Shown here one piece after another: positions 3,871 to 60,309 of a DNA stretch of 64,000 bases. Every line of letters begins with the position of its first letter. Position 1 is the first letter of the stretch. The stretch comes from Candidatus Omnitrophota bacterium (lineage in GTDB: Bacteria; Omnitrophota; Gorgyraeia; Gygaellales; Profunditerraquicolaceae). The stretch lies in assembly GCA_963805065.1 (NCBI GenBank), contig CAWDSS010000010.1, forward strand, positions 275,696 through 339,695, given 5' to 3'. The translations under genes and the position numbers were made by a program. Below the pieces are notes generated by a model. That model saw nothing but the letters and a program-made list of their open reading frames with translations. It was not told the origin of the DNA and made no database searches.

Positions 3871-3913
3871 CTAAACGCTCCTTTAGGTTGGCAATTTCTC
3901 ATCGCCGTTCTTG

Positions 3914-4133
3914 CTTTCATTAGTATGGCTATGGAGGCACCAAAACACATTGTTTGCAATCGAAGATTCCAAATCACATTGATTTGGAATAGATTCTGCG
4001 CCACATTGGTGTTAAGATACCAAAACACATTGTTTTGGTATCTCCGTTATCTTTCATTAATGCAGCTATGGAGGCACCAAAATACATTATTTTGGTGCCG
4101 TAGCCTTTTTTCATTAATGAAAAAAGGCTACGG
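3914..4133 (-). repeat. tandem hairpin-repeat array 1 plus tRNA trailer hairpin (downstream of tRNA-Ser GGA)
   Basis: The palindromic units are 3941-3956 (degenerate), 3966-3990 (ATTCCAAATCACATTGATTTGGAAT), 4016-4042 (GATACCAAAACACATTGTTTTGGTATC) and 4073-4099 (GGCACCAAAATACATTATTTTGGTGCC). A degenerate ATTAAT hairpin lies at 4041-4072, and the perfect trailer palindrome is at 4098-4133. Confidence 0.85.
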
Positions 4134-4215
4134 AGAGGCAGGGATTTGAACCCTGGGACCCTTGCGAGTCATACGCTCTCCAAGCGTACGCATTCAACCG
4201 CTCTGCCACCTCTCC
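4131..4215 (-). tRNA. tRNA-Ser (anticodon GGA)
   Basis: The reverse complement reads GGAGAGG TG GCAGAGCGGTTGAATGC G TACGC TTGGAGA GCGTA, then a long variable arm, then CAGGG TTCAAAT CCCTG CCTCTCC G. It folds as a class II cloverleaf by hand. No CCA is encoded. Confidence 0.85.
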
Positions 4216-4637
4216 AAAAAATTTTAATGTAAAATTTTTTGGATTCTGTAGGCAATGCTTAGATTAATCTAAGCATTGCCGCAAGAATCTCCAAAGTCGT
4301 TCGCTATTGCTTAATCAATACTTATCAGTAAACAAATAACAGTTGTTGCTTTATTTATTACGTAGCTTTATATTTTAGGACGCTCACTCCTCATAGGGGA
4401 AACCCGTTTGGTTTCCCCTGATGACGCTCTCCGCCAGCTGTTAGCTTTGGTCGCTGTCACCCCTTCCTTCGCAATTTAGAGAAACATCCTTAAGGGGAAA
4501 ACAATCTTTTCCCCTTAATAATCCCTTTTTTAGGTTTTTAACAACAGAACTTAAAACCACTTCTATTGTCCTGCTTCGCAGGATAGTTGTTAAAAACCTT
4601 TGTCGTTCGCTTGAGCTTTGTTTGTCAGATTACCAGA

Positions 4638-4753
4638 TCCTGAAATACATTATTTCAGGACTAAGATACCAAAACACATTGTTTTGGGACAAAGAAGCCA
4701 AAATACATTATTTTGGCTTCTCCGTGATTTTTCATTAATGAAAAATCACGGAG
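4638..4753 (-). repeat. tandem hairpin-repeat array 2 plus tRNA trailer hairpin (downstream of tRNA-Ser CGA)
   Basis: The units are 4638-4660 (TCCTGAAATACATTATTTCAGGA), 4669-4687 (CCAAAACACATTGTTTTGG) and 4694-4720 (GAAGCCAAAATACATTATTTTGGCTTC). The trailer palindrome is at 4720-4753 (CTCCGTGATTTTTCATTAATGAAAAATCACGGAG). Confidence 0.85.
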
Positions 4754-4835
4754 AGTGGAGGATTTGAACCTCCGGTCACCTTACGGCGACAACGGTTTTC
4801 GAAACCGCCGCATTCAACCGCTCTGCCAACTCTCC
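4749..4835 (-). tRNA. tRNA-Ser (anticodon CGA)
   Basis: The reverse complement reads GGAGAGT TG GCAGAGCGGTTGAATGC G GCGGT TTCGAAA ACCGT, then a long variable arm, then GGAGG TTCAAAT CCTCC ACTCTCC G. No CCA is encoded. Confidence 0.85.
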
Positions 4836-4869
4836 AGATTTATGAATACATACACGACTTTATCTGAAC

Positions 4870-5151: not shown

Positions 5152-5192
5152 TCTATACCTCCTTGCTTTGCTTGCGGATTAAAAGGTATCGA

Positions 5193-5350
5193 GGCACTGA
5201 AATACATTATTTCAGTTACGCAATAGGCACCAAAATACATTATTTTGGGTCTCAATAGGTACTAAAATATATTATTTTGGGCAACGATAGGCACTGAAAC
5301 ACATTGTTTCAGTGCCACCGCTTAGCTTCATTAATGAAGCTAAGCGGTGG
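5193..5350 (-). repeat. tandem hairpin-repeat array 3 plus tRNA trailer hairpin (downstream of tRNA-Ser TGA)
   Basis: Four units with a 32-33-nt period start at 5193, 5226, 5258 and 5290. One example is GGCACTGAAACACATTGTTTCAGTGCC at 5290-5316. The trailer palindrome is at 5315-5350 (CCACCGCTTAGCTTCATTAATGAAGCTAAGCGGTGG). Confidence 0.85.
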
Positions 5351-5433
5351 GGGTGAGATTTGAACTCACGGAGGGGAGAAATCCCCTCAACAGTTTTCAA
5401 GACTGCCGCTTTCAACCGCTCAGCCACCCCACC
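5345..5433 (-). tRNA. tRNA-Ser (anticodon TGA)
   Basis: The reverse complement reads GGTGGGG TG GCTGAGCGGTTGAAAGC G GCAGT CTTGAAA ACTGT, then a long variable arm, then GTGAG TTCAAAT CTCAC CCCCACC G. No CCA is encoded. Confidence 0.85.
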
Positions 5434-5543
5434 TATCCTGTTTTTCCCGCATCTATGAATTTTATTGTCGGGCGGGATCCCGCCTGTGATTTAATAGCCG
5501 AGCGGGACAAGACAAGCCCATTCGACCACTCTGGCACCCCACC
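5434..5543 (-). pseudogene. tRNA-like 5' half (class II, Ser-like) interrupted by a 63-nt twin-hairpin module and truncated after the anticodon stem
   Basis: The minus strand reads GGTGGGG TG CCA GAGTGGTCGAA TGG G CTTGT CTTG, then [TCCCGC-N18-GCGGGA][TCCCGC-N21-GCGGGA], then AAA ACAGG ATA, after which tRNA-Ser(TGA) begins. The variable arm, T arm and 3' acceptor strand are absent. Confidence 0.55.
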
Positions 5544-5551
5544 AGAACTAA

Positions 5552-28891: not shown

Positions 28892-28920
28892 TTATGAACC
28901 CAATTTAAAAACTAGTAAAT

Positions 28921-28981
28921 AATGGGGACGTTTCTATTTTTATGCTAATCTGGAGACGTTAAAAATAGAAACGTCCCCATT
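28921..28981 (-). terminator. GGGGACG hairpin family copy 2 (terminator-like)
   Basis: AATGGGGACGTTTCTATTTTT / AAAAATAGAAACGTCCCCATT. It starts 3 nt after the transketolase stop, and on the minus strand it is followed by ATTTACTAGTTTTT. Confidence 0.6.
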
Positions 28982-28984
28982 ATT

Positions 28985-33027: not shown

Positions 33028-33167
33028 TAATGAATCTGTCGGTTTTCTCACCAATGGACGGGTCCTGCCTGCCAAGCCACCTCGCCGTGCTCGCTCACGC
33101 TCCGCGCGGCAAGGGCTTCGGCTTGTCAGTCACCCGTCCATACGCTTGAAAACCGCCAGATTCATTA
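33028..33167. repeat. GC-rich long-hairpin element with 19-20-nt terminal inverted repeats, copy 1 (140 nt)
   Basis: The ends are TAATGAATCTGTCGGTTTTC ... GAAAACCGCCAGATTCATTA. Interior pairings are ATGGACGGGT/ACCCGTCCAT, GCCAAGCC/GGCTTCGGC and GCCGTGC/GCGCGGC. The ends are shared with 46018-46243. Confidence 0.7.
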
Positions 33168-33228: not shown

Positions 33229-33343
33229 AATGAAGACATAACTTACGGAGCGTAAGCGAACGTAAGTTATTGTCTGAATTTGTCCCCGCGTTTTGCTTCG
33301 CAAAGCGAAGCAGCGGGGATTAATTCGCAAAAAAGGAGCAGGT
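33229..33343 (+). promoter_or_regulatory. conserved two-hairpin 5' leader element, copy a
   Basis: It starts AATGAAGACATAACTTACGG. Hairpin 1 pairs 33238-33247 with 33261-33270. Hairpin 2 is TCCCCGC...GCGGGGA, pairing 33283-33289 with 33313-33319. An SD and ATG follow. It is homologous to the reverse complement of 38489-38620. Confidence 0.6.
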
Positions 33344-38488: not shown

Positions 38489-38620
38489 TTAATGTTAGCT
38501 CCTGTAGTTTCCCCGCTGCTTCGCTTTGCTTCGCAAAGCGCGGGGATTAATTCAGCCATAAACTTATGTTCGTTTACCTGCCTGCCAGCAGGCAGGCACT
38601 CCATAAGTTTAGGCTTCATT
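38489..38620 (-). promoter_or_regulatory. conserved two-hairpin 5' leader element, copy b
   Basis: The minus strand reads AATGAAGCCTAAACTTATGGAG...CATAAGTTTAT GGCTGAATTAA TCCCCGCG...CAGCGGGGA AACTACAGGAGC. It aligns with 33229-33343, but hairpin 1 carries an extra GCCTGCCTGCTGGCAGGCAGG palindrome in its loop. Confidence 0.6.
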
Positions 38621-45278: not shown

Positions 45279-45998
45279 TTAAAGTAAATAATCCTGTTTT
45301 ATCCTTTTAACGCTTTTAAAGATATTGGTTTTTATTTCGGGGCAGGTTCTTTTCAAATCGCTGATAATCTTTGCCATTTTCGTGCGGTTGGAAATTATGG
45401 AATTGGGGCAAGCGCAGGTTTCAAGCGGAAGTTTTTCTTCTTTGGCAAAGCGCTTAGTCATATATTCTTCTACATAGGCAAGTGGACGGATAATAGTAAT
45501 TTTCCCTTTAAACAATTCCTGCTTGGGCGCCATGGCTGAAATTTCTCCCTGGAAAAATAAGTTCAAAAGAATTGTTTCTACGATATCATCCTTATGATGA
45601 CCCAGGGCAACTTTAGTGCAGCCAAAACGGTTAGCTACTTCAAATAAGGCTTTCCTTCTATTCCAAGAACACCAAAAACAATTTATGTCTTTCTTGTTAG
45701 TTTTTTTTAATACATCAACTTTCTCAATATGATATTTGACGCCTATTTTCTTGAAATATTTCACTAACTTTTTGGCGCAGGAACGCGGATAACCCAAATC
45801 AATATGCACAGCCAAAATATCATATTTTATGGGCACAAATTTCTTCCGGTCATGCAATATGCGTAGCAGCGTAAGGCTATCCTTGCCGCCTGAAACTGCC
45901 ACCGCAATCTTATCGCCTTCGGAGAGCATCTTGTAATCCATAATCGCCCTCCCTATGCGCTTAGAAATATAAAACTCCGGACCTTGTAGAACTGCCAT
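45279..45998 (-). CDS. ttcA: PP-loop ATPase, tRNA 2-thiocytidine synthase TtcA family
   Basis: 239 aa with the PP-loop VAVSGGKDSLTLL and Cys motifs CFWCSW and CACPN. Confidence 0.8.
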   Translation of the reverse strand: MAVLQGPEFYISKRIGRAIMDYKMLSEGDKIAVAVSGGKDSLTLLRILHDRKKFVPIKYDILAVHIDLGYPRSCAKKLVKYFKKIGVKYHIEKVDVLKKTNKKDINCFWCSWNRRKALFEVANRFGCTKVALGHHKDDIVETILLNLFFQGEISAMAPKQELFKGKITIIRPLAYVEEYMTKRFAKEEKLPLETCACPNSIISNRTKMAKIISDLKRTCPEIKTNIFKSVKRIKQDYLL

Positions 45999-46017
45999 TT
46001 TAAACCTTTCTATCGTC

Positions 46018-46243
46018 TAATGAATCTGTCGGTTTTCTCGCTCAGCACGATTTTGCCCCTTTGGGGCACGCCAATGATCTTTCGTTCTTCGGCGGCTGCT
46101 GAACTCGTCGCATTTGCTCTAGCAAATGCTCCTCAAACAGCATCGCCGTGCCAGTGTTGTCGCTTCGCTCCACTGGCATTCCCTCATCACTCAAGCTCCA
46201 TTGGCTAAAATCGTGATTCGCTCGAAAACACGCCAGATTCATT
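46018..46243. repeat. GC-rich long-hairpin element with terminal inverted repeats, copy 2 (226 nt)
   Basis: The ends are TAATGAATCTGTCGGTTTTC ... GAAAACACGCCAGATTCATT. The interior is branched: CACGATTTT/AAAATCGTG, GCCCC-TTT-GGGGC, GCATTTGC-TCTA-GCAAATGC, GCCAGTG/CACTGGC. It ends 20 nt upstream of the ttcA start. Confidence 0.7.
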
Positions 46244-46288
46244 TTTGCTATAACGCTATAGCTATATTTATAGTTCGGGTGTTATATC

Positions 46289-47263
46289 CTAAATGTAGGA
46301 TTTATACATAGGTTCGCTTCTTATAAATTGGCGATCTTTTGAAATTATAACCTCTTGAAATGAATAACTTTTTTCCTCGTGTGTTTCTAGTAATAGCTTT
46401 ATTTTGATATCTTTTTTAAAACTCAAAGTGATATGATCAAAAACTGTTGGAGAATTTGGATATAAAGGTCTCCGAAGAAGCTCAAACTGAAAAGCTTTTA
46501 TGCAATTAGAATTTATACTGGTAACATCAGTACTCTTTTCACTTTTAATGATTACATTTGAATCTTGACCTTCATGAAGTCTAAAGGTTAAAATTGAAGT
46601 TAAATGAGTTCCGGGTTTATTACCAAAATTATTGTAAACAACTCTTAACTTACCCTCTATAGAATCTTCTTTTTCCTCCCAAGTTTCTGGTTCTAGATTA
46701 ATGTTAATCCGAGGTATTATTTTTTCCTCAATCAGCTTCAAAGTTTCAACAAAAGGGATTTGTGTAGTCTCATCTCCTATCCTACGATAAGCGCGATCTT
46801 CTAATCTTGAGAAATAAACAACATTCAAATCTATTGGATGAATTTCTATAATAAAAATGTTTTCTTTCTTTTGGATTTCGATCTTCTCAATTTCAACTGA
46901 TGGGAAAGTAGAATAAAGAGGAATAGAAGTCAAATTGGCTATTATCCATTTTCTTATTTGATCATCATCTTTAATCAATTCTTCCTTGATGGGGATAATA
47001 TCTATGGGAAATCCATCTTTTTCACTCAACCCCAAAAATAAGACGCCTCCTTCTGAAATAAATTTATTGAGGAACCCAACTAAGGGCTTGATGATTATTT
47101 GTTTAGAATGGTCATCACGTATTGATATATTCTTAAATGTTTTACATTCAAATATCGTTGATTCTTTATATTTGCAATCTATTATATTATTTTTTATATC
47201 TACTTTATTAATATTATTCTCTTTTCCAAATATATCTTTCATTAATCTTCTTGAATTCATCAT
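46289..47263 (-). CDS. AlbA_2 (Schlafen-like divergent-AAA/DNA-binding) domain protein with unknown C-terminal domain
   Basis: 324 aa and very AT-rich. The N-terminal half fits the AlbA_2 pattern (ESTIFECKTFKN...LVGFLNKFISEGGVLFLGLSEKDG...IFIIEIHPIDLNVVYFS..DRAYRRIGDETTQIP). The C-terminal ~140 aa are unassigned. Confidence 0.55.
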   Translation of the reverse strand: MMNSRRLMKDIFGKENNINKVDIKNNIIDCKYKESTIFECKTFKNISIRDDHSKQIIIKPLVGFLNKFISEGGVLFLGLSEKDGFPIDIIPIKEELIKDDDQIRKWIIANLTSIPLYSTFPSVEIEKIEIQKKENIFIIEIHPIDLNVVYFSRLEDRAYRRIGDETTQIPFVETLKLIEEKIIPRININLEPETWEEKEDSIEGKLRVVYNNFGNKPGTHLTSILTFRLHEGQDSNVIIKSEKSTDVTSINSNCIKAFQFELLRRPLYPNSPTVFDHITLSFKKDIKIKLLLETHEEKSYSFQEVIISKDRQFIRSEPMYKSYI

Positions 47264-47578
47264 TTATCTCCTTCCATAAATTTTATGCGTTTCGCTGAAG
47301 ACGCTCCAGAAAATTTTCGCTGCGTAAGCGGGTGACTTGGCTGATTTCCGAGCAGGGCATGGAGGCAAGGAGCGGGCACGGTTCCCGCATCCGGCTCCTA
47401 AATTAAAAAAATGGATTTATACACGGCCCGGATGCGGGAGAGCGACGCAGCCGACCTGAGCGAAGTTTTGCCTCGCAGGGGCAAAACGAGCGTCCCTGCG
47501 AGGAAACAGCCAAGGCAACACCCGGCTCTAAAGGATGAGCCGGTGCGCCGCCTCCTGCGGCGGGACCCGCAAAAAAAG
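47264..47578. other. GC-rich, hairpin-dense non-coding region (candidate structured RNA or 5' leader)
   Basis: A 12-bp stem pairs 47383-47394 with 47428-47439. Two mutually exclusive hairpins pair 47465-47472 with 47480-47487 and 47471-47480 with 47494-47503. A further stem is CCGGCTC-N8-GAGCCGG. There is no credible ORF. Confidence 0.5.
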
Positions 47579-49321
47579 CTATATTCTACCAGAATCAGAA
47601 ATCATGCTACGGATTTCTTTGGTTACTTTGTGCTTTAATAATTCCTCGAGGGAAATTGGAATAGTTAAGGACCAGTTTTTGTTGCTGATTGTGCCGGGGA
47701 AATTAATCCTGTATTGGTAAGGATCGCCCTTAAACACATCAGTAAGATACAGGTAGTCTACGATGGTATTGATGCAAAGGCGTGCATTGGAATTAAGGGT
47801 TATTTTTAATACTGCTTTAACAATCTCGGCATCGGACTTCTCGCGCATCTTTCCTTTTAATCCCAAATGTTTCCATAGCTTTTCTTTCTCCTGGTAGGAA
47901 TTAAGGTACAAGTCTATAAAATCACCGACTTCTCCCCTGTTTTTACCCAGGCTAGATACGAGCTTTTCTTGGGAATCAATGCTGTCAAGCCAACGCAGCC
48001 TGCCATGGCAAGAGCGGGCCTTGTCAAAAAGCAAGCCCTTTACAGAATCATAATCTATTTTTCTGTCTTTGCATTTTCTCAAAAATAAATCCTCATCAAT
48101 AGTGCCTGCCTCATTTTCCCACCAGGCAGGCCAGTTGGTTGTATCATGTGTGGATAACATTGCCACTGAAAGCGCGCGGTATTCTGCCGGTTCAAGAAAA
48201 TCATGCAACACATTCCAGTCTTTTACCCAACGCTGGACATCATTGCCAGGAATTCCTAGTTCTTTTAAAGTATCTGTGCAAACTTTAGGTATAATCCCTA
48301 GATCTTCAGCGCATAAGCTCATTTTCGTGCTTGCCTGTATCAGGGATAATATGTGTTTACCCTGCCCCAGCCATTTGCTTTCATCAACAGGATCGAAGAA
48401 ACCGTTTAAACCCTGATTCTCTAACGGTTCATTATAAGAAATGCTCCAGATACGGAATAAGCCCACAACATGGTCTATTCTTAAAATATCGTAGAAATTC
48501 TCGGCGTATTTTAATTTTTCTTTTAAATACTTATAATCATCGGCTGCAATCCTCGCCCAATCATAAGTAGGCATGCCCCAACGCTGCCCCTTAGCACAAT
48601 ACATATCGGGAGGCGCTCCGGCGGCAAAATCCAATTTGAAATACTCTGGATACGACCAGACATCCGCGCTGTCTCTGGAAACCAAAATCGGCAGGTCACC
48701 TTTTAATAAAACTTTTCTCGAAGCAGCGTAAACTTTGACTTCTTTGAACTGCTTAAATGCTAACCACTGCATCCAACTCTGAAATTCTATTTCGCAAAGA
48801 TGTTCGTTTTTAAAACTCTCCAATGCCTGGGCTTTGCGGTTCCTGTATTTTTCCTGCCAATCCCACCAGGCTAACCCTTGGTGATAATCTTTGAGCGCTT
48901 TAAACAGGGAAAAATCAGCCAGCCAATAAGAATTCTGGTTCTTGAATTTATCAAATTCTGAATTTAATTTGGGGCGAGAAACAAAAATTTCCCGCAAGAT
49001 TTTGATTTTTTCATTTTTTAACGAATAGTCTACATATGGTTTTACATCCGGGAAGGATTTTTTTAAAGCTGCTTGTTTGGCGGCGGTGAGCGAAATGTAA
49101 ACTGGCTCAAGCGCAAAAGAACTTACCGAATCATAGGGGCAAAACAGCGACCCTACTTCGTTCATGGGCAAAAGCTGTATTATGCTATTACCGGTTTTCC
49201 TGGCCCAATCTACAATAAGTTTGATGTCTGATAAATCCGCCAGCCCTGCGCTTTTTTGGGAATATACGCAGAAAAGGGGAACTAAAACCCCGGCCCTTTT
49301 TTGTAACTTTACCTGTTGCAT
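47579..49321 (-). CDS. malQ: 4-alpha-glucanotransferase (GH77 amylomaltase)
   Basis: 580 aa: RAGVLVPLF, LRIDHVVGLFR, GIIPKV..T...LGIPG, STHDT. Confidence 0.88.
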   Translation of the reverse strand: MQQVKLQKRAGVLVPLFCVYSQKSAGLADLSDIKLIVDWARKTGNSIIQLLPMNEVGSLFCPYDSVSSFALEPVYISLTAAKQAALKKSFPDVKPYVDYSLKNEKIKILREIFVSRPKLNSEFDKFKNQNSYWLADFSLFKALKDYHQGLAWWDWQEKYRNRKAQALESFKNEHLCEIEFQSWMQWLAFKQFKEVKVYAASRKVLLKGDLPILVSRDSADVWSYPEYFKLDFAAGAPPDMYCAKGQRWGMPTYDWARIAADDYKYLKEKLKYAENFYDILRIDHVVGLFRIWSISYNEPLENQGLNGFFDPVDESKWLGQGKHILSLIQASTKMSLCAEDLGIIPKVCTDTLKELGIPGNDVQRWVKDWNVLHDFLEPAEYRALSVAMLSTHDTTNWPAWWENEAGTIDEDLFLRKCKDRKIDYDSVKGLLFDKARSCHGRLRWLDSIDSQEKLVSSLGKNRGEVGDFIDLYLNSYQEKEKLWKHLGLKGKMREKSDAEIVKAVLKITLNSNARLCINTIVDYLYLTDVFKGDPYQYRINFPGTISNKNWSLTIPISLEELLKHKVTKEIRSMISDSGRI

Positions 49322-60039: not shown

Positions 60040-60104
60040 CGTACACTACCTATTATTATAACTTACTGTGTAACGTTTAAGGTGTAATGTGTAACGTGGG
60101 TAAA

Positions 60105-60169
60105 GAAAAGGGGACGTTTCTATTTTTCTTCTAATTAGGAAACGTTAAAAATAGAAACGTCCCCTTTTC
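60105..60169 (-). terminator. GGGGACG hairpin family copy 3 (terminator-like)
   Basis: A 23-bp stem, GAAAAGGGGACGTTTCTATTTTT / AAAAATAGAAACGTCCCCTTTTC. On the minus strand a T-rich tail (TTTACCC) follows. It is embedded in a larger imperfect GTGTAA-word palindrome. Confidence 0.6.
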
Positions 60170-60309
60170 TTTACTTTATTTTGCATTACACTGGCATTAC
60201 ACACTTTACACATTAAACGATTCTATGTGCCTATTTCTGAAATGAAACCAGCCTTTGGCGTTTTGGTTTCATTTCACCCTTTCCTCTGGAAAGGACCTTT
60301 ATGAAGTTA

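Follow-up and report, generated by a model that had tools for sequence, protein, structure and literature searches.

Prokaryotic Schlafen nucleases carrying an Ex4(E/D)xK motif are widespread anti-phage effectors in which the nuclease is joined to varied sensor domains, and the published systems function as a single gene (Perez Taboada et al., Nat Microbiol 2026, PMC13056530). In the pSlfn5 type, RorSlfn5 of Raoultella ornithinolytica uses an immunoglobulin (Ig)-like sensor that resembles integrin ectodomains to detect the T5 tail assembly chaperone; after sensing, its Mn-dependent nuclease cleaves tRNA anticodon arms (PMC13056530). The orthologues of pSlfn5 have a conserved nuclease domain and a sensor domain that varies between them (PMC13056530). 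Here we analyse a gene for a 324-aa Schlafen/AlbA_2 protein located between malQ and ttcA in a 64,000-nt stretch of an Omnitrophota genome (assembly GCA_963805065.1, contig CAWDSS010000010.1, positions 275,696 to 339,695; hereafter the window). We think it rather probable that this gene was acquired horizontally and forms, on its own, an anti-phage system of the pSlfn kind, housed in a defence hotspot between malQ and ttcA, and that the structured DNA on both sides of it is resident in the site.

Domain architecture of the 324-aa protein

The N-terminal half of the protein scores well above the cut-off of the Pfam family SLFN_AlbA_2 (Table 1). The last ~140 residues match no Pfam family, and Pfam detects no regulator-type helix-turn-helix (HTH) or HATPase domain in the protein. 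An initial annotation, made from the sequence alone, had described an AlbA_2-type domain followed by an unassigned C-terminus of this size, which is what Pfam returns. The profile and structure searches that it suggested for both halves resolved them into an SLFN11-type nuclease half and a predicted Ig-like beta-sandwich half. An AlphaFold2 (AF2) model built on a 68-sequence alignment, with a predicted local distance difference test score (pLDDT) of 95.5 and a predicted template modelling score (pTM) of 0.89, is alpha/beta in its N-terminal domain and all-beta in its C-terminal one; it replaces a model from five sequences in which the N-terminal domain had a pLDDT of 54.6. Foldseek searches of this model against the PDB gave the N-domain of SLFN11 as best match (7fex, E = 4.9e-5) and the tRNase domain of SAMD9 as the second (9o0d). 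Further matches were ectodomains of integrins alphaV and alphaX (8xfo, 4o02, 5es4, 3k71), cohesin modules, ApaG and Ig-like domains of glycoside hydrolase family 2 (GH2).

A profile of the family, compared to the PDB, aligns on the catalytic C-lobe of SLFN11 (7fex, E = 2.4e-6) and of rat Slfn13 (5yd0, 1.5e-5), and in this alignment E34-S-T-I-F-E39-C-K41 of the window protein falls on the ESxxIEFK of SLFN11 and Slfn13. The motif is strongly conserved among 68 family members: all of them have E or D at position 39, 67 have E34 and 65 have K41. The two domains have diverged to different extents, with a mean pairwise identity among the 68 relatives of 0.30 for the nuclease domain and 0.20 for the C-terminal domain (N-terminal higher than C-terminal in 97% of pairs).

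Members of the family are rare. A word-indexed search of 5.8 billion proteins recovered five clusters only, and a profile search of 1.84 billion representatives gave ~284 matches, ~100 of them at E <= 1e-10. Most are 310-350 aa long and align from end to end, showing that this is a genuine two-domain family. The members that we looked up were all metagenomic proteins; no relatives were found in viral contigs, and tblastn gave no match in plasmids. The same gene is present at 100% identity in the assembly of a second sample, in a contig that ends inside both of the hairpins flanking it. A homologue 46% identical to the window protein is broken into overlapping open reading frames (ORFs) of 124 and 203 aa in three independent assemblies (L003 164-1140, L004 1209-2185, L005 139-1115), and could be either a frameshifted pseudogene or a true split or recoded gene.

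The modelled architecture matches that of prokaryotic Schlafen defence proteins with an Ig-like sensor (pSlfn5 type), already known from 2026. The statement in the initial annotation that no known system matches is therefore superseded, and it arose because neither PADLOC-DB (2023) nor NCBIfam has a model for such proteins. By analogy with RorSlfn5, SLFN11 and SAMD9, the C-terminal sandwich would act as a sensor that binds a phage protein, and binding would switch on the N-terminal nuclease, in which the E34/E39/K41 site is intact. If the protein behaves like RorSlfn5, the nuclease would then make metal-dependent cuts in tRNA anticodon arms, leading to a shutdown of translation and hence to less phage.

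An acquired gene in a variable slot

The GC content of the Schlafen-type gene (0.290) is the lowest among the 67 genes of the window, the 66 others having a mean of 0.410 (sd 0.038, minimum 0.308; z = -3.2). Its GC content at third codon positions (GC3) is 0.23, compared to 0.42-0.46 in malQ, ttcA and rmuC, and ATA and TCA codons are enriched three- to fourfold with respect to neighbouring genes. The initial annotation had pointed out that the gene is markedly more AT-rich than its surroundings, which these values bear out, and that AAA, AAT and ATT dominate its codon usage, which is roughly right: AAA comes first (24 occurrences), but ATA (23) and GAA (22) rank above AAT (18), followed by GAT (18), ATT (16) and TTT (16). 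The closest homologues, 35-49% identical, are genes of 25-31% GC in contigs of 28-31% GC, suggesting that the window gene retains the composition of a low-GC donor.

Using MalQ as a query, we gathered 80 loci each from species-representative genomes and from metagenomes. They belong without exception to Omnitrophota or mislabelled relatives, and the best MalQ identities are 69% in the genomes and 74% in the metagenomes. The gene order aroE-pilD-malQ-ttcA-rmuC recurs across these 160 loci, and ttcA was found after malQ, within the fetched DNA, in 92 of them. The two genes lie 0 to 2838 nt apart. They abut (<= 20 nt) in at least 12 loci, so that the ancestral arrangement was probably an operon, and in about a quarter the gap is of 600 nt or more and contains extra genes. 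A relative of the AlbA_2 protein was not found by tblastn in any of the 160 malQ loci. As had been proposed initially, the Schlafen-type gene has been acquired and inserted between malQ and ttcA: it is absent from all the related loci, and its composition fits that of its low-GC homologues. In the window the site reads malQ, 60 nt, an inward-facing structured element (B), 59 nt, the gene, 45 nt, a second element in inverted orientation (A), 19 nt, ttcA.

The malQ-ttcA spacer is a lineage-wide hotspot for accessory and defence genes. Relatives carry in this slot the defence, toxin-antitoxin and related genes listed in Table 1, together with cargo of a non-defence nature: a HAD hydrolase, an ankyrin protein, an HD-GYP protein and a TonB-dependent receptor. 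A large part of the cargo is lower in GC than its own locus. The idea that slot cargo is always recent was rejected, since the nucleotidyltransferase cargo of L059 and L124 is ~71% identical throughout, as diverged as the flanks, which indicates vertical descent. In four loci (L013, L026, L115 and L132) a HAD-family hydrolase directly follows malQ and the structured elements come after the hydrolase gene, which seems to have resided in the slot for longer. Two other loci have low-GC ORFs placed between spacer elements or next to them (206, 131, 84 and 337 aa; L107 6090-7620 and L131 3109-4122); these ORFs match nothing in Pfam or PADLOC and are candidate accessory or defence genes.

Homologues of the Schlafen-type gene at other sites are found in tight operons, overlapping their neighbours or lying 7-20 nt from them, with no structured or non-coding flanks. 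A SIR2-like gene (PADLOC Aga_SIR2, 5e-10) stands ahead of the homologue in L002 and L004, in L003 the homologue precedes genes for an MkoA-like superfamily 1 (SF1) helicase (2.7e-105) and a methyltransferase, and in L086 it precedes the gene for a Hypoth_Ymh protein. The link to defence drawn in the initial annotation gains substance from three sides: a Schlafen nuclease joined to a putative sensor, the SIR2-like and MkoA-like neighbours of homologues, and the presence of DRT, SoFic, Mrr and AbiEii genes in the same spacer of relatives. We regard the gene as very probably defence-related.

One could suspect instead that the protein is an AlbA_2-type nucleic-acid-binding factor with a housekeeping or regulatory role, for instance in RNA processing, acquired by chance and without any immune function. 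AlbA_2 domains are also known from regulators, the slot holds the non-defence cargo mentioned above, the protein has no PADLOC match, and 30.4% of prokaryotic Schlafen genes are away from defence genes (PMC13056530). Such a role is nevertheless unlikely in our view: the catalytic triad is intact and conserved among the 68 relatives, regulator-type HTH and HATPase domains are missing from the protein, the distribution is patchy and rare, homologues have defence-like neighbours, and the putative sensor varies faster than the nuclease domain.

Several observations weigh against a pSlfn-kind anti-phage system as such. Apart from the 30.4% of genes just mentioned, the protein matches nothing in PADLOC-DB (2023) or NCBIfam, and no other recognisable defence gene adjoins the window copy, the wider neighbourhood not having been scanned against defence models. 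The search of genomes and metagenomes gave no empty-site allele from the same species, with the closest MalQ being 74% identical. A promoter scan found no consensus promoter on the - strand upstream of the ATG, and consensus scans found no intrinsic terminator in the hairpins after malQ and no promoter or terminator within the flank elements; transcription of the gene probably runs on from malQ or starts at a weak promoter in the 59-nt leader, and that of ttcA would likewise have to pass through element A or start within it. Lastly, the sensors were compared by published description only, and tRNase activity, trigger and phage protection would all be carried over from a distant Enterobacterales relative.

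Table 1. Features of the malQ-ttcA slot in the window and cargo found in the same slot of related loci. Window positions are those of the 64,000-nt stretch; a locus handle precedes positions in other loci.
Feature	Location	Strand	Description and evidence
Schlafen/AlbA_2 + Ig-like protein gene	46289..47263	-	324 aa; predicted pSlfn-type single-gene architecture; ORF, Pfam, AF2, Foldseek, GC
Schlafen/AlbA_2 nuclease domain, residues 34-169	46757..47164	-	PF04326 SLFN_AlbA_2, E = 1.5e-11, 45.3 bits vs cut-off 25.3
Catalytic motif E34-x4-E39-x-K41 (ESTIFECK)	47141..47164	-	Motif definition PMC13056530; aligned to SLFN11
C-terminal all-beta Ig-like sandwich, residues 186-322, presumed sensor	46298..46708	-	AF2, pLDDT >= 90; Foldseek
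Leader of the Schlafen-type gene, 59 nt	47264..47322	-	GGAGAT ribosome-binding site 5 nt 5' of ATG
Trailer of the Schlafen-type gene, 45 nt, AT-rich	46244..46288	-	Small palindrome GCTATAGCGTTATAGC
Element A, 226-nt multi-branched hairpin	46018..46243	+	Inverted vs genes; ends 19 nt from ttcA start; termini TAATGAATCTG / CAGATTCATT
Element B, ~197-nt GC-rich branched hairpin	47323..47519	-	malQ-sense, beside malQ; nhmmer E = 2.6e-38
Two short GC hairpins immediately 3' of malQ stop codon	47520..47578	-	CGCCGCCTCCTGCGGCG; CACCGGCTC..GAGCCGGTG
malQ (4-alpha-glucanotransferase)	47579..49321	-	Core gene, upstream side of slot; PF02446 Glyco_hydro_77, E = 9e-117; synteny in 160 loci
ttcA-like PP-loop ATPase	45279..45998	-	Core gene, downstream side of slot; PF01171, E = 6e-21
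Second element with A-type termini, other interior	33028..33167	+	Terminal matches to A
DRT RT_UG19 (2e-146) + 437-aa partner without Pfam/PADLOC match	L168 4618-8101		malQ-ttcA slot
SoFic (5e-50)	L116 6054-7397		malQ-ttcA slot
Type IV Mrr-type restriction enzyme (8e-58)	L143 6739-8451		malQ-ttcA slot
AbiEii + HTH protein	L033		malQ-ttcA slot
DUF6036 nucleotidyltransferase pairs	L059, L124		malQ-ttcA slot
CopG-type toxin-antitoxin pair	L150		malQ-ttcA slot
ORF6N protein	L133		malQ-ttcA slot
HTH protein	L030/L048		malQ-ttcA slot

Structured elements bounding the slot

The initial annotation had correctly placed the gene between malQ and ttcA within GC-rich hairpin DNA. The 315-nt spacer upstream of it (47264-47578) is, with a GC content of 0.57, the most GC-rich intergenic stretch of the window, and folds with a minimum free energy (MFE) of -131 kcal/mol (z = -4.3 and -4.05 on the two strands; equalled by 0/100 shuffles). 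The downstream spacer (45999-46288) has a GC content of 0.47 overall and 0.52 within the 226-nt element A, with MFEs of -107 and -103 kcal/mol (z = -8.6 and -9.2 on the two strands; 0/200 shuffles). Small ORFs called in these hairpins (46020-46208 on the + strand, 46042-46242 on the - strand and 47411-47638 on the + strand) were taken as by-products of GC-rich palindromes.

We searched for both elements in related loci with nhmmer profiles. Element A is 77% identical to L010 7779-8009, which constitutes the whole malQ-ttcA spacer of that locus. Another 10 loci contain homologues of it, in nearly every case immediately 3' of malQ, and none of these loci has the AlbA_2 gene. Element B is 83.5% identical to L007 2890-3078, compared to 68% for malQ and 73% for ttcA between the same genomes at the nucleotide level, and occurs in the malQ-ttcA spacer of ~30 related loci, again without a Schlafen-type gene. 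A third family, C, is found in ~24 loci. A and B each have terminal inverted repeats. They also share a TTTYCTCGC..TTTTGCCCC motif, which had raised the suspicion that they are homologous, but the similarity between them is not significant (z about 1.8).

Structure was assessed through RNAalifold and pair counting. In the alignment of element A, 93.6% of cells are paired, compared to 81% in shuffles and 36-51% when partners are slid, and compensatory changes occur in 28 of 53 pairs against 13.1 +/- 2.1 in shuffles (0/500 as high). The stems of element B also covary. Covariation in a DNA palindrome can also come from intrastrand templated repair, and the signal hence speaks for selection or maintenance of pairing, not necessarily for an RNA. 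Other than tRNAs, Rfam gave no match at E <= 1 for 44-50 kb, at the gathering score for the whole window, or at E <= 0.1 for five related loci. Folding and pair counts do not single out a functional strand: the reverse strand always folds better, as expected of a G-rich strand, and G.U vs A.C counts weakly favour the opposite one.

The initial annotation had gone further and proposed the gene with its structured flanks as a candidate acquired module, in a layout reminiscent of protein-plus-RNA defence or toxin-antitoxin systems. On such a reading, a stable RNA made from the 315-nt upstream region would either act together with the AlbA_2 protein or neutralise it. It is true that this region lies directly 5' of the gene and folds significantly better than shuffles. 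However, the core of element B has counterparts in the spacers of ~30 relatives without an AlbA_2 gene, the genes most closely homologous to the window gene abut or overlap their neighbours with no non-coding flanks, there are no tandem direct repeats of the ToxI kind beside the gene and no Rfam family, no non-coding locus is conserved along with the gene, and the published cases act as a single gene (PMC13056530). A partner RNA is thus highly improbable. The presence/absence comparison splits the proposed module in two: the gene is missing from the 160 loci, but homologues of both flanks are kept and fill the spacers of many relatives. Given that A and B stand in spacers without the gene and that homologues of the gene stand without such flanks, we read the GC-rich hairpins as residents of the slot that predate the cargo, which in the window lies between the inward-facing B and the inverted A.

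The elements show a clear polarity. Copies of A and B beside malQ are in malQ sense in a 19:1 ratio, while those beside ttcA are inverted in a 10:1 ratio; single A or B copies in short gaps are found in either orientation (6:3). Judged by inspection of its hit table rather than by a tally, family C appears to share this polarity. A typical spacer can be written as malQ [X->][<-Y] ttcA, where X and Y are drawn from A, B and C, and cargo, when present with a pair, sits between its members. In L007 (2730-3085) two divergent B copies stand head-to-head with no cargo and make up a ~360-nt palindromic region in the malQ-ttcA spacer; of the two, the copy beside ttcA most resembles the copy that lies beside malQ in the window. 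In L113 the pair [C->][<-B] occurs twice in one contig (3214-3593 and 5304-5640), on either side of a gdhA-like gene, and paired elements are therefore not strictly confined to the malQ-ttcA junction. In the ~1.4 Mb of related sequence sampled, all but ~5 of ~65 distinct element copies fall immediately downstream of malQ.

This polarity invites a different view of the locus, in which B, the gene and A together form a mobile cassette whose ends are the ~200-nt hairpins, acting in the manner of terminal inverted repeats (TIRs) or as recombination sites that target the malQ-ttcA junction, so that the flanks would have been acquired as DNA sites. Unrelated cargo is indeed found inside inward-facing pairs (the HTH gene of L030/L048, three ORFs in L107, the DRT of L168), L007 offers a pair free of cargo, and the elements are better conserved than the genes flanking them. 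A second element with A-type termini lies ~13 kb away in the window (Table 1): its 5' terminus is identical to that of A over 24 nt, and it shares ~22 nt of the 3' terminus of A (the terminal matches being 24 nt, exact, and 28 nt at 89%), which shows that this genome carries related elements elsewhere too. Its GC-rich interior is unlike that of A, with a stem GGGTCCTGCC... that recalls B-type stems, and it lies in a divergent intergenic region with two more hairpins. Against a cassette, the two ends in the window come from different families without significant similarity; single elements and mixed pairs (C/B, C/A, A/C, B/C) are common without cargo; copies are nearly absent outside the spacer in the related sequence sampled, and A and B cores have none in viral contigs; the cargo includes no transposase or recombinase; and some of it is vertically inherited (L059 and L124). 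No clear target-site duplication was seen at the three A-type copies inspected, with two copies carrying A-type termini in the window. Altogether, we judge a cassette of this kind improbable. For the element families as a whole, we tentatively suggest, as a somewhat less doubtful idea, that A/B/C pairs could be a so far undescribed functional device of the hotspot: they might serve a site-specific, non-autonomous cassette exchange as its ends or recombination sites, or else be structured-RNA insulators that allow foreign cargo to enter between co-transcribed core genes without disturbing these, the Schlafen-type gene being one of many cargoes.

Strong hairpins are widespread in the window: among the 27 intergenic regions that measure 90 nt or more, 9 reach z <= -5, and several repeat families are present, so that structure by itself is no special mark of the Schlafen-type gene. 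A near-perfect intergenic hairpin GGGGACGTTTCTATTTTT...AAAAATAGAAACGTCCCC occurs twice (~28918-28984 and ~60098-60176), the second copy being nested in a larger hairpin (region z = -13), and another repeated family, CCCCGC..GCTTCGCAAAGCGAAGC..GCGGGGATTAATTC, is found at ~33283-33326 and ~38510-38553. The spacers around three tRNA-Ser genes (3871-4869, 5152-5551) are packed with repeated short CCAAAACACATTGTTTTGG-type hairpins (region z = -17). The window also has an extreme strand bias, with 66 of its 67 ORF-called genes on the - strand; as a consequence, all spacer hairpins lie between co-directional genes.

Comparison with known systems

Omnitrophota is an uncultured phylum of ultra-small and possibly host-dependent bacteria in which phage defence is, to our knowledge, largely uncharted. 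The Schlafen tRNase defence family with an Ig-like sensor architecture now probably extends to this phylum, and the malQ-ttcA junction, as a compact and phylum-wide hotspot, can be used as a bait locus for new defence genes in metagenomes. Its boundary elements are conserved, covarying and not in Rfam; should they mediate the exchange or the insulation of cargo, they would represent new hotspot biology. We found no description in the literature of a hotspot bounded by polar pairs of covarying elements.

The Schlafen-type gene shares with pSlfn5 and RorSlfn5 its single-gene nature, an N-terminal Schlafen/AlbA_2 nuclease domain with the Ex4(E/D)xK motif, and, at the C-terminus, a predicted Ig-like beta-sandwich with integrin ectodomains among its closest solved folds. 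As in pSlfn5, the nuclease domain is better conserved than the sensor, and gene neighbourhoods are of the defence type. It differs from RorSlfn5 in its host (Omnitrophota instead of Enterobacterales), in size (324 aa; RorSlfn5 is 43.1 kDa), in the onset of the motif (residue 34, after a two-helix N-terminal extension, instead of residue 15) and in position 39, which is E and not D. With SLFN11, SLFN13 and the tRNase of SAMD9 it has in common the fold of the nuclease core, the catalytic motif and, presumably, an antiviral output through tRNA cleavage; unlike them, it has a single lobe-equivalent, no helicase or linker domains, and an unrelated regulatory module.

In layout, elements A, B and C resemble bacterial interspersed mosaic elements (BIMEs) and REPINs, the latter built from repetitive extragenic palindromic (REP) sequences. 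REP units measure 20-40 nt and REPINs ~100 nt, and both are dispersed over the genome in high copy. Like them, and like miniature inverted-repeat transposable elements (MITEs), the elements described here are extragenic, GC-rich, imperfect palindromes that form stable hairpins, occur as inverted pairs between co-directional genes, have terminal inverted repeats and comprise several sequence families of one architecture. Unlike REP sequences and REPINs, they are branched units of 130-245 nt, 4-6 times longer, absent from Rfam and more conserved than the neighbouring genes, and their copy number is apparently low and tied to one locus across a phylum-level sample made of partial genomes; no RAYT (TnpA_REP) or transposase is identified for them, the host genome being covered over 64 kb. 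In integrons, a gene cassette consists of an ORF without promoter followed by an attC hairpin of 57-141 nt, and cassettes line up in direct orientation beside intI/attI; the present elements, in contrast, flank their cargo in inverted orientation, are longer, are also found without cargo, and have no adjacent integrase.

Defence hotspots between conserved core genes have been described in Pseudomonas, Vibrio and E. coli. The malQ-ttcA slot has, like these, syntenic housekeeping flanks and a variable content that is rich in defence and toxin-antitoxin genes and often deviates in GC. It differs from them in having no integrase or tRNA, in being very small, usually with one or two genes, and in being often bounded by an inward-facing pair of structured elements of 130-245 nt.

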